Source of the DNA: a virus
Taxonomy: Duplodnaviria > Heunggongvirae > Uroviricota > Caudoviricetes
Virus record (IMG/VR): IMGVR_UViG_2651869695_000012
Reading direction: 5' to 3' (one strand)
Length of the DNA stretch: 38,818 bases
The translations under genes and the position numbers were made by a program. Shown here piece after piece: positions 34,454 through 37,474 of this stretch. Each line of letters begins with the position of its first letter. The stretch's first letter is position 1. The notes below the pieces were generated by a model. That model did not search any database. It saw nothing but the letters and a program-made list of their open reading frames with translations, and was not told where the DNA came from.

Positions 34454-35097
34454 TGATCACGTTTACCGACAAAGAACTGATTAAAGAAATCAAAGAGCGC
34501 ATAGGAAGCCTGGATGTGAGAGACAATATTGAACGCCGTGCTTATGAAATCGCACTGGCATCGCTGGAAGAGGATCCGGTGGCATGGCTGCATTCAGACA
34601 ATGGATTAGGTATTCCGGCAATAACCAGGAGTAAAAAAATTGCTGACAGTTGGTTATCGAAGGGCTGGTATGTTCAGCCGCTATATATAGCTCAGCCAGT
34701 ACACGTGCCGGAGGAAATGAATCTGGCACGCGCACAGAAAGAGGTGGGTTTTAATCGATATATCAGGGCTGGGTATGTTGATGGCTGGAACGCCTGCCGC
34801 GCCACCATGCTTCATGGTGCCAAACCTGTAAGCCAGACTTACAAGTTGAACAAGCTGTCGGGCAACTCTCCGGTAACTCCGGATGGCTGGATAAGCTGTA
34901 GTGAGCGAATGCCGAACGATAAACAGTATGTTTGGTGTTGGGGTAAGTCTTACGGCTGGACTGAGTGCGATACCTTCGAAGGGTATTATGATTGTTCGAG
35001 AAACAAATGGTGGGCAGTTACTGACAATGGGGAAGAACCGGCATCGAAAGTAACCCACTGGATGCCGCTACCGGAACCGCCGCAGGAGGTGAAGTAA
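34453..35097 (+). CDS. DUF551-like phage protein (YfdT-like)
   Basis: 214 aa; C-terminal VTHWMPLPEPP; translationally coupled to the upstream gene (TAATG). Confidence 0.5.
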   Translation: MITFTDKELIKEIKERIGSLDVRDNIERRAYEIALASLEEDPVAWLHSDNGLGIPAITRSKKIADSWLSKGWYVQPLYIAQPVHVPEEMNLARAQKEVGFNRYIRAGYVDGWNACRATMLHGAKPVSQTYKLNKLSGNSPVTPDGWISCSERMPNDKQYVWCWGKSYGWTECDTFEGYYDCSRNKWWAVTDNGEEPASKVTHWMPLPEPPQEVK

Positions 35098-35291
35098 TGA
35101 ACAACTTAATGACAACTAAACAAGTCGCCGACTTCTGTGGCGTTTCAGTATCGACAGTTCTTCGCTGGAACAGCGTAAACCGGAGAACTGGCCAGAAGTA
35201 CAGGCCTGATTTTCCAGATCCTGATATTAAATCATGCCCAAATAAATGGGCTTCACGCAAGATTTACAGGTTTGCAGGAGTTATTGAATGA
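35097..35291 (+). CDS. Excisionase / AlpA-family HTH DNA-binding protein
   Basis: 64 aa; MTTKQVADFCGVSVSTVLRWN is the AlpA/Xis-type HTH; GGAGGTG RBS; lies between the accessory operon and the integrase-proximal locus. Confidence 0.7.
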   Translation: MNNLMTTKQVADFCGVSVSTVLRWNSVNRRTGQKYRPDFPDPDIKSCPNKWASRKIYRFAGVIE

Positions 35292-35635
35292 CGTATGTGA
35301 ACAGACACGTCTATGGCACGGTAAGCGTCTGTCTGAGCGATACAGGCACGGACGTTGCTATCCACAAGCATTAATTATCAGGAAACGGGGACCGCTCCCC
35401 AAGCATGATGTATTGAAACGAAGACATTTACACAATGATAGAAAAAATACTAAAATAATGATTCAACTCAAAGAGTTGATGTACATAAAATGCCTCACCA
35501 GCCTAGGTGAACATTTTCATGGGTGGGAAAAAACATGATGTGGACCACACTTCCCCCTCTAAAATGAGGGGAAAGAGTATGGTTTTGTTGTACACTAAAG
35601 GCCATATGGTTTTTTATTATGTTTGGATAAGATAA

Positions 35636-35821
35636 ATGAATGTAATAGCATTTAATGAAATAGAATCGAGCATCGCCGCCAATGATCAGGTTGATTCTAT
35701 CTGCATTGAATTAACAACATTTAATCAAGATAATGTCATTTCATTTGAAAGTAAAAAGAAAAATAAAGAAATTCTTGATGCATTTTTTGAAATAATAAAT
35801 ACTGATATAGTTTTCGACTAG
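35636..35821 (+). CDS. Small acidic ORF immediately upstream of the deaminase gene (may be part of a non-coding leader instead)
   Basis: 61 codons, ATG at 35636 with a weak GGATAAG context; very AT-rich; ends 10 nt before the deaminase start. Confidence 0.3.
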   Translation: MNVIAFNEIESSIAANDQVDSICIELTTFNQDNVISFESKKKNKEILDAFFEIINTDIVFD

Positions 35822-35831
35822 GTAATTAGCA

Positions 35832-37427
35832 ATGGCTGAAGCAGCAAAAAAAAACCCACAAAAGCTGAATGAAAAAAAAGGCTCAACATCGGCATCATCA
35901 CTTGATATTGTGAATTCACGACAATCAAAGGATATTTATCTTGGATTGTGTGGATATGTTGGATGTGGCATGAGAACGATAAACAAAATTATCGAAGAGA
36001 TATCCAAAGAATGGGGGTATAATGTTGTACACATCCGCATAAGTGCGCTTATGGAAAACCCATTATATTTTGAGCCAGCAGCACTGAAGGTATCCGAAAG
36101 CACACAAGTTAATAGACATTTAAAACTCCAGGATATTGCCAATAAACTTCGTAAACATTACAAAAAAAATGAGTTGCTTGCAGAAGCTGCTATTGCAGCA
36201 ATCGCAGCAGAGAAAAATAATATTGTTTATAATAATGATGAATATAAAGGTACTGTCTTCATCATTGATCAATTCAAAAGGCCGGAAGAAATAGAGTTAT
36301 TCAGAGTTATATATCAGCATAATTTCTATTTGTTAGGAGTTTTGCGCGATTTAGATTACCGAATTCAGAATCTCATTGATGACGAATCGACAAAGAACGA
36401 TCTTCATTTAATTATCAATATTGATAATAAATCCTCTGATCCGTATGGACAAAGAACCGGGGAAACCATTCTTGATTCAGATTTTTTTATTAAAAATAAC
36501 TTCAGCCAAAAAAGTGAATTAAAGAAGAAGATTGATCGGTTTTTCGGTCTTATTCATGGCAAAAATGGTTTAACACCAACTTTTAACGAGAAAGGTATGT
36601 ATGCTGCCTTTTCAACATCATTACAATCAGCTTGTTTATCACGTCAAGTAGGGGCTGCACTGTTTGATGATGAAGGGAATTTGCTTGCCGTGGGTAAGAA
36701 CGACGTACCTAAAGCTGGTGGCGGGTTGTATAGCAGTGATGATTTTGATAACGATCATCGATGCGTTCACAAAAGTGGTAAGTGTTATAATGATGCAAAC
36801 AAGCTAAAAATTAAAGACCGTATAAAAAGCATATTATCAACCGAAGTAAGAACTGTATTAGGTATTTCCGCAGGACAAACTGTTGCCGATATTAATATAA
36901 CACGACTTCTAAACAAATTAGATAATATTGCAGAAGGCATTTACAAAGACAGCAAAATATCAAGTGTAATGGAATACTCCAGATCAATTCATGCTGAAAT
37001 GGACGTCATTACATCAATGGCTAGAAAACAAAACGGCGATACTAAAGATAAAATTCTTTTTACGACAACCTATCCCTGCCACAACTGTGCAAGGCATATT
37101 GTCGCAGCTGGAATAAAAAAAGTAGTATATATAGAGCCATTTGATAAAAGCCTTGCTCTTGATCTGCATAATGATGCAATAACAAAGAACGAAGAATCTT
37201 CCAAAGTAATATTTTGTGATTTTGAGGGGGTATCACCCCGCCGCTACCATAAATTTTTCAGACCAACGGATGAACGTAAAGATGATAAAACAGGGGCTGC
37301 AAATAAATTTAATGCTCGCTACGAAAATCATATAGATGTTCAATATCTTGATGATTATAGAAAGTATGAGACTGTTGTAGCTAAGAAATTTATAAACGAG
37401 ATTGCTAAACCAGAGTCTCAGCCATAA
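35832..37427 (+). CDS. Two-domain P-loop-like NTPase + zinc dCMP/cytidine deaminase protein; candidate AvcD/DCD-type nucleotide-depletion anti-phage protein
   Basis: 531 aa; N-terminal Gly-rich loop LGLCGYVGCGMRT; C-terminal deaminase signature: CLSRQVGAALF, zinc ligands HAE (SIHAEMDV) and PCxxC (TYPCHNCARH); AT-rich; terminator hairpin directly downstream. Confidence 0.75.
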   Translation: MAEAAKKNPQKLNEKKGSTSASSLDIVNSRQSKDIYLGLCGYVGCGMRTINKIIEEISKEWGYNVVHIRISALMENPLYFEPAALKVSESTQVNRHLKLQDIANKLRKHYKKNELLAEAAIAAIAAEKNNIVYNNDEYKGTVFIIDQFKRPEEIELFRVIYQHNFYLLGVLRDLDYRIQNLIDDESTKNDLHLIINIDNKSSDPYGQRTGETILDSDFFIKNNFSQKSELKKKIDRFFGLIHGKNGLTPTFNEKGMYAAFSTSLQSACLSRQVGAALFDDEGNLLAVGKNDVPKAGGGLYSSDDFDNDHRCVHKSGKCYNDANKLKIKDRIKSILSTEVRTVLGISAGQTVADINITRLLNKLDNIAEGIYKDSKISSVMEYSRSIHAEMDVITSMARKQNGDTKDKILFTTTYPCHNCARHIVAAGIKKVVYIEPFDKSLALDLHNDAITKNEESSKVIFCDFEGVSPRRYHKFFRPTDERKDDKTGAANKFNARYENHIDVQYLDDYRKYETVVAKKFINEIAKPESQP

Positions 37428-37433
37428 CTGTTT

Positions 37434-37474
37434 CCACTCCTTATTTCTGTAAGGATAAGGAGTGGTGTTTTTAT
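37434..37474 (+). terminator. Intrinsic terminator after the deaminase gene, between the convergent deaminase and integrase genes
   Basis: 11-bp perfect stem CCACTCCTTAT / ATAAGGAGTGG (37434-37444 / 37455-37465) followed by TGTTTTT. Confidence 0.65.

Follow-up and report, generated by a model that had tools for sequence, protein, structure and literature searches.

The window analysed here is a 38,818-nt stretch of viral DNA (IMG/VR record IMGVR_UViG_2651869695_000012) whose right end corresponds to a CPS-53/KpLE1-like Escherichia coli prophage, and the element in question is a 540-nt interval (35292-35831) located directly upstream of a gene for an AvcD-type anti-phage dCTP deaminase. The interval holds a 61-codon open reading frame (ORF) that the first-pass annotation had regarded as marginal; instead, it is the best-conserved feature of the interval, and comparative sequence analysis identifies it as a genuine protein-coding gene, under purifying selection at the amino-acid level across the AvcD clade. 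By analogy of position, size and orientation it is the counterpart of avcI, the antitoxin element of the AvcID systems, and we consider it probable that the locus is an AvcI antitoxin gene that is also translated, into a protein with a selected function. While the locus itself is an ordinary member of the AvcID family, the family-wide coding signature at the 'non-coding' avcI appears to be undescribed: our literature search found no report of a conserved AvcI-encoded protein, and a 2025 review keeps AvcI as non-coding. The features on which the argument turns are the following:

35636..35821, + strand: gene at the avcI position, a 61-codon ORF of 186 nt for an acidic small protein (phrog_9966), with 29 homologue clusters
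35820..35823, + strand: AGGT Shine-Dalgarno (SD) sequence of avcD, overlapping the TAG stop codon of the small ORF and 8 nt before the ATG
35832..37427, + strand: avcD, anti-phage dCTP/dCMP deaminase of 531 aa, assigned through PADLOC, Pfam, NCBIfam and motifs

As had been suspected from the sequence alone, the 531-aa protein belongs to the AvcD type of anti-phage dCTP deaminases. It matches the PADLOC dCTPase model (1.1e-164), the Pfam family dCMP_cyt_deam_1 (PF00383) and the NCBIfam equivalog NF041025 (465 bits, cut-off 400), carries the HAEMD and PCHNC motifs, and combines the P-loop kinase-like N-terminal and zinc-motif deaminase C-terminal domains that define AvcD. In published AvcID systems, the neutralising element lies on the same strand directly 5' of the deaminase gene, is 152-174 nt long, coincides with a 174-nt ORF, and is co-transcribed with avcD but 20-60 times more abundant; in the homologues from Vibrio parahaemolyticus, Proteus mirabilis and E. 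coli H10407, a small 'hypothetical protein' ORF precedes the deaminase, and the small element neutralises the cognate enzyme only (10.1101/2021.03.31.437871). The minimum length that AvcI needs to function has been given as about 171 bases, and the avcI transcript of V. parahaemolyticus, at about 280 nt, is longer than its ORF (PMC10511110).

The window shares this arrangement, with a two-domain deaminase following a same-strand gene of about 170-190 nt that overlaps a small ORF, and shares the association with mobile elements. The only H10407 homologue that we found is encoded on plasmid p58, where a 61-codon ORF (2618-2803) ends 12 nt before avcD, as compared to 61 codons and 10 nt in the window; its accession (WP_000951932.1) differs from the tested one (WP_096882215.1), and we presume the tested locus to be that of p58. 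In three further E. coli avcD loci, whose deaminases are 43-54% identical to that of the window, the corresponding ORFs have 60, 62 and 61 codons; in all, five divergent E. coli avcD loci, that of H10407 p58 among them, show an ORF of 60-62 codons directly 5' of avcD. The resemblance has its limits, as the window deaminase is 61% identical to the H10407 enzyme, whereas the small ORF is about 22-32% identical. The first-pass annotation had expected a cis-acting inhibitory RNA near an AvcD-like deaminase, and the interval does hold the position of an AvcID-type neutraliser; however, the published RNA is the transcript of the small ORF and not a separate hairpin RNA in cis.

The basic properties of the small ORF are as first read: its product is acidic (net charge -8), its SD sequence is weak (GGA at -14), and it ends 10 nt ahead of the deaminase ATG at 35832. 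The 29 homologue clusters of the 61-aa product (75-98% identity) come from Klebsiella, Salmonella, Serratia, Yersinia, Proteus, Morganella, Budvicia, Enterobacter and Cronobacter, and in every one of them the ORF lies 10 nt before a 531-aa deaminase, with all 61 codons kept bar two clusters with frame-shifted tails. Over 15 distinct cassettes, no stop codon occurs in the ORF frame, as opposed to 6-14 in each of the other two sense frames, and the ratio of non-synonymous to synonymous differences (pN/pS) is 0.33 in the ORF frame, compared to 0.58-0.76 in other frames and, for the antisense frame with shared wobble positions, 0.40. A 61-codon open frame would arise by chance at such a composition (27% GC) with p~0.002. 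The small acidic protein partner that had been offered as an alternative to an antitoxin RNA is thus strongly supported as the product of a real gene. The synonymous diversity of the small ORF (0.22) is lower than that of avcD (0.32), which hints at an extra constraint at the nucleotide level, and TAGGTAAT, in the region of the avcD SD sequence and the small-ORF stop, is invariant across 15 homologues.

The coding signature extends well beyond this subfamily. A scan of genome contigs with the single deaminase yielded 2 loci only, and exact-protein look-ups and scans of metagenomes and viral contigs were used instead; we thus gathered 115 AvcD-homologous loci from metagenomes and viral contigs, of which 81 were evaluable and examined. 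In all 33 loci with a deaminase at least 39% identical to that of the window, an ORF of 45-90 codons on the same strand ends just before avcD; its last residue is Trp in 27 cases, Asp, as in the window, in 4, and another in 2, while among the more distant homologues (<39%) such an upstream ORF is found in 9 of 48 only. Median lengths of the longest ORF within 300 nt upstream are 59 codons in sense and 19 in antisense, and SD cores precede 13 of 32 starts, at a background frequency of 0.09. The upstream ORFs show no nucleotide similarity but have protein motifs in common, namely an internal [S/N]-N-V-[V/I]-x-F and a C-terminal helix of the form K-x-A-[LI]-x-x-[IV]-[LV]-x-x-A-x-K-[LI]-x-W-stop. 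Over the last 18 codons of 29 non-redundant sequences, the information content by codon position is 0.51/0.90/0.40 bits. All four GCN codons are in use at the conserved Ala positions, TTR as well as CTN codons at the conserved Leu, and the signal falls to zero straight after the stop; in an independent lineage (loci L043 and L055), pN/pS is 0.19 at a pS of 0.83. Varying codons for conserved residues, together with the low pN/pS, show selection on the amino acids and not on the RNA sequence, and its presence at avcI in every sampled homologue of at least 39% identity is hard to square with the 'purely non-coding' view of this element.

When compared with hhalign, the window family and the W family, to which the V. 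parahaemolyticus type belongs, align at E=7.6e-4 with a probability of 25%, pairing NVISFE..KEILDAFFEII with NVVSFK..QKAIETIR. Residues N33, V34 and F37 are invariant in the alignment, including the H10407 ORF, and M1, N16, I53, I58 and D61 are also common. Within loci L028-L143, two charge classes can be told apart: an enterobacterial type ending in F/L-D, to which the window and H10407 products belong, is acidic (-6 to -9), whereas the V. parahaemolyticus and Photobacterium products belong to a type ending in W that is basic (mean +3.8; 26 of 29 positive). No family was found for the 61-aa protein in Pfam, NCBIfam or PADLOC, nor any helix-turn-helix, ribbon-helix-helix or AbrB domain match in Pfam and NCBIfam, and its PHROGs group, phrog_9966, has no function assigned. 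A hidden Markov model search of 1.84 billion representative proteins recovered its own family and one 39%-identical relative only, and the PDB holds neither a full-length AvcD-like structure nor a relative of the small protein. PGAP calls the small gene in only part of the E. coli genomes examined. Some of the distant homologues (among L060-L140) have a longer upstream gene instead, which hints at different partners in other branches; the 110-aa protein upstream in L133 looks Xre/HigA-like by eye.

The avcI used in experiments can itself be traced to this ORF family. In the oligonucleotide table of the AvcI study (PMC10511110), the V. parahaemolyticus avcI oligonucleotide ATGGTTACAAATTTAAATG translates into M-V-T-N-L-N, and the reverse complement of TTACCAACGAATTTTCTG reads CAG AAA ATT CGT TGG TAA, which is Q-K-I-R-W-stop. 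The primer ends thus coincide with a start and a stop codon, and therefore the experimentally used avcI is delimited by the ORF of a family member. They match the ends of 56-aa Photobacterium proteins, MVTYLNNYKE...KAAQKI[RH]W, encoded upstream of avcD on plasmid pPHDD1, with a gene length of 171 nt, equal to the quoted functional minimum of AvcI. A match of the V. parahaemolyticus avcI primer in viral contigs was rejected as a chance match to an unrelated phage structural gene.

Upstream of the small ORF, the interval divides into a conserved and a poorly conserved part, with the following features:

35530..35635, + strand: conserved non-coding leader of about 105 nt (p=0.13-0.15; folding z=-2.17)
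35547..35578, + strand: hairpin 3, GC-rich and terminator-like, with the core CCCCTC-TAAAAT-GAGGGG at 35554-35571
35292..35529, + strand: poorly or non-conserved spacer, holding hairpins 1 and 2 and the best sigma-70 match
35427..35456, + strand: best sigma-70 consensus match, TTTACA-18-TAAAAT (promoter scan), absent where homology starts later

The leader is present in 15 of 15 distinct homologous cassettes, whatever their flanks, and its divergence, which is similar to that of the small ORF (p=0.10-0.15), is well below the synonymous divergence of avcD (pS 0.32-0.47); the segment 35530-35635 is therefore under constraint at the nucleotide level. It may be a promoter and/or a 5' untranslated region with a terminator-like stem-loop. 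It contains the palindrome TGTGGACCACA, then hairpin 3 followed by TTTTGTTG, as well as the invariant TTTTTATTATGTTTGGAT. The palindrome (11 nt, 35539-35549), directly 5' of hairpin 3, is nearly invariant in the 15 cassettes and could be an operator or the stem of a small RNA. All three hairpins that had been pointed out in the interval are present, that of hairpin 2 with coordinates off by 2-3 nt, but only hairpin 3 beats chance, an equally stable 40-nt window occurring in 2.5% of 200 dinucleotide shuffles. Its 13-nt arms (35547-35559 and 35566-35578) are 85% complementary (-14.5 to -16.1 kcal/mol), and between 13 and 15 of the 15 homologues retain its pairs, without compensatory changes. A T-rich run (35583-35590) begins 5 nt past the stem; the terminator scan made no call here in the window, while in the Enterobacter homologue, where the stem has 15 bp, it called a terminator. 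The leader is specific to the subfamily: locus L027, whose deaminase is 75% identical, keeps the 61-codon ORF behind an unrelated leader, and the leader of H10407 p58 also differs from that of the window. In bovine E. coli of the OkiPb lineage, the leader carries an IS1A insertion at about 35591, which separates hairpin 3 from the small ORF; these strains match the deaminase over bases 1-1407 only, and the cassette there is apparently decaying or rewired.

Over the spacer, homology to cassettes elsewhere begins, depending on context, at 35347, 35368, 35397, 35417, 35422 or 35504, and the divergence of 35478-35529 (p=0.29-0.41) is close to the synonymous divergence of avcD, so that this segment evolves at an approximately neutral rate. 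Hairpin 1 (arms 35301-35307 and 35327-35335, -10.7 kcal/mol) and hairpin 2 (GGGGA at 35387-35391 and TCCCC at 35396-35400, -8.4 kcal/mol) lie outside the unit common to homologous cassettes, and their energies are reached in 65-88% of the 200 shuffles; they are chance features, and 35292-35529 is filler. Two further ORFs were rejected as genes: that at 35272..35538, which had been said to have no plausible start, does have a TTG start but is not conserved, and like a GTG ORF at 35507-35635 it is either without homology or broken in frame by 1-nt indels in all non-E. coli homologues.

Several observations weigh against translation of the locus into a functional protein. In V. cholerae, start-to-stop mutants and a 174-nt ORF construct without a ribosome-binding site still neutralise (10.1101/2021.03.31.437871), direct binding and inhibition of AvcD by AvcI RNA have been reported, and rifampicin activates AvcD and depletes avcI, whereas spectinomycin does not activate it (PMC10511110), which speaks against a labile protein acting alone as the inhibitor. 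In the window subfamily, the distribution of variable sites over codon positions (18/13/27) is marginal only (p=0.05-0.07), the small ORF has the weak SD sequence described above, and its leader holds no convincing canonical sigma-70 promoter in a promoter scan of the window and homologues. Furthermore, the window and H10407 ORFs do not match significantly in BLASTP (E=0.79), and an AlphaFold2 model of the 61-aa protein, based on a 25-sequence alignment, has no confident fold (pLDDT 47.5). The V. cholerae neutralisation constructs were over-expressed. In that species, a 4-nt deletion at the 3' end of the ORF kills activity (10.1101/2021.03.31.437871); with it go the stop codon and part of the codon before it, which encodes a conserved Trp in the V. 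parahaemolyticus and Photobacterium ORFs and, as we assume by analogy, in V. cholerae too. The result fits an RNA or a protein model alike.

At the RNA level, a search of the interval against Rfam at permissive thresholds gave sub-threshold chance matches only, and RNAalifold found compensatory change in 0 of 80 predicted pairs over 15 homologues, a set that at 91% identity is uninformative. The folding z-scores of 34 diverse avcI-position ORFs (mean -0.51) are no different from those of avcD pieces of the same length (-0.71; p=0.58). These tests lend no support to an RNA function, while being compatible with one.

Four other accounts of the locus can be set against a translated AvcI gene. Were the 186-nt region to bind and inhibit AvcD untranslated, in a type-III-like manner, with the ORF incidental or serving to position ribosomes, the active stop-codon and no-ribosome-binding-site constructs, the reported RNA binding and inhibition, the ineffectiveness of spectinomycin and the low synonymous diversity of the small ORF would all be accounted for; we nevertheless find this improbable, given a long frame in AT-rich DNA that is kept in all homologues, the same amino acids written in varying codons across loci without nucleotide similarity, pN/pS values of 0.19-0.33, and folding no better than that of the control, with no compensatory pairs. 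The opposite extreme, a small protein that is the sole inhibitor, as in type II systems, with the RNA mattering only as a short-lived mRNA, draws on the family-wide protein conservation, on a stop codon set in the avcD SD sequence as in a coupled two-protein operon, on the loss of activity upon the 4-nt deletion in V. cholerae, and on the cognate specificity, which fits fast-evolving contacts (at deaminase identities of 75-82%, those of the small ORF are 39-52%). It has to face the active start-to-stop mutants, the spectinomycin result, the direct RNA binding and the low-confidence structural model, and we judge it unlikely.

It would reconcile the coding signature with the published RNA data if the RNA inhibited and the small protein were an accessory, be it an autoregulator, a phage sensor or a stabiliser of the RNA complex. 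The basic W-type proteins would fit RNA binding and TGTGGACCACA could be an operator, but the acidic D-type product of the window is no obvious nucleic-acid binder and matches no DNA-binding domain, and L027 keeps the ORF with neither the leader nor the palindrome; such an account seems rather unlikely to us. Very improbable, finally, is a separate hairpin small RNA from 35292-35635 as the antitoxin, the role in which the leader hairpins had first been cast: two of them are at chance level and outside the cassette, the third, although stable and conserved in a leader that folds better than expected, belongs to a subfamily-specific leader that is missing from L027 and H10407 p58, Rfam gave nothing, and the neutralising fragment in the tested systems is an ORF-sized segment, even if the V. 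parahaemolyticus transcript exceeds its ORF.

For the favoured reading, an AvcI gene that is also translated, we propose the following course by analogy with the tested homologues. The 186-nt gene would be transcribed together with avcD, and its product would block the dCTP/dCMP deaminase post-translationally; once host transcription is stopped by an infecting phage, the labile product would be lost, and the freed deaminase would turn dCTP/dCMP into dUTP/dUMP and so starve phage DNA synthesis. The antitoxin locus would then be a dual-function mRNA/small RNA, or its protein would help to control AvcD; AvcI's biogenesis and the form in which it is active are named as questions in the published work (PMC10511110). 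More tentatively, we put forward as a possibility that, family-wide, the AvcD inhibitor consists of, or necessarily includes, a conserved protein of 50-65 aa that has an N-V-[VI]-x-F strand and, at its C-terminus, an amphipathic helix.

The comparison with known systems places the locus between several categories. It shares with type III toxin-antitoxin systems (ToxIN-like), going by the AvcID literature, a labile RNA antitoxin, post-translational inhibition and loss upon transcription shut-off; however, the interval has no tandem repeats (TRF and a repeat scan), the toxin is a deaminase and not a processing endoribonuclease, the antitoxin locus is protein-coding, and a window scan predicted no terminator between the two genes, as in published AvcID systems, so that it falls outside the type III definition. 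The published AvcI, in turn, is described as non-coding, as opposed to the amino-acid-level selection at the window locus, and the acidic product ending in FD differs from the basic V. parahaemolyticus/Photobacterium type ending in W. Dual-function small RNAs that encode small proteins are exemplified by SgrS/SgrT and RNAIII/delta-haemolysin. As in the SgrS/SgrT type, a small ORF and an RNA activity would reside on one short transcript, but those RNAs act by base-pairing with mRNA, whereas AvcI RNA is reported to bind a protein. AvcID is cited as the case in which the target of an RNA antitoxin is an enzyme and not an RNase; if the protein is indeed the AvcD inhibitor or an obligatory part of it, AvcID would have to move from type III to a protein or RNA-plus-protein toxin-antitoxin system, and the 'dCTP deaminase' defence would have to be annotated as two genes. 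The window enzyme passes both models of the corresponding catalogue entry (PADLOC dCTPase and NCBIfam NF041025; Tal et al., 2022), yet defence catalogues and genome annotation list the dCTP deaminase as a one-gene system, frequently without the partner, which accompanies all 33 homologues of at least 39% identity. We would expect constructs with the deaminase alone to be toxic or misregulated.

A possible second start of transcription lies within the small gene:

35706..35734, + strand: putative internal promoter-like site, TTGAAT-17-GATAAT (promoter scan)

The Yersinia, Enterobacter and Klebsiella homologues have the same site in the same place, two of them with a TG extension, and it could supply avcD with its own transcript; it sits in conserved coding sequence, and its conservation is not independent evidence.

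The surroundings of the two genes are those of a mobile cassette, which in the window is bounded by:

35097..35291, + strand: excisionase of 64 aa, left neighbour of the cassette (phrog_1553, 7.7e-36; HTH_17)
37434..37465, + strand: intrinsic terminator closing the cassette (13-bp stem and T run)

The prophage genes run in the order yfdP, yfdQ, yfdR, a DUF551 protein and the excisionase, then come the 540-nt gap and the 531-aa ORF, and the integrase lies beyond the terminator on the minus strand. The AT-richness first noted for the leader is real, and holds for the cassette: GC content, about 0.50 in the prophage backbone, drops to 0.27-0.38 over the stretch from about 35400 to about 37600. 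Among 5,426 complete E. coli genomes, the 540-nt interval is never found without the deaminase (49 genomes, at least 98.7% identical), and it is therefore part of the cassette and not of the prophage. The cassette is mobile, has two genes and is of AvcID type; as a moron, it occupies the place between xis and int in a CPS-53/KpLE1-like prophage.

Flanks vary among homologous cassettes, which are found in P4-like satellites adjoining the primase, in P2-like prophages, in integrative and conjugative elements, and in islands by GmrSD, EcoRII or GAPS4. The avcI-avcD pair moves as one self-contained unit of about 2 kb (loci L009-L026 and L003-L006), which in P2-like prophages sits between gpA or ogr and the portal gene and in integrative and conjugative elements near traU and parM, and it also occurs on ColE1-like plasmids of 4.6-5.8 kb in Klebsiella and E. 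coli. As for the left neighbour, the excisionase (35097-35291) is without PGAP annotation in the 99.2% identical chromosome of E. coli 33-6, and its equivalent in strain GB089 is labelled as a partial 'DNA-binding protein' pseudogene.

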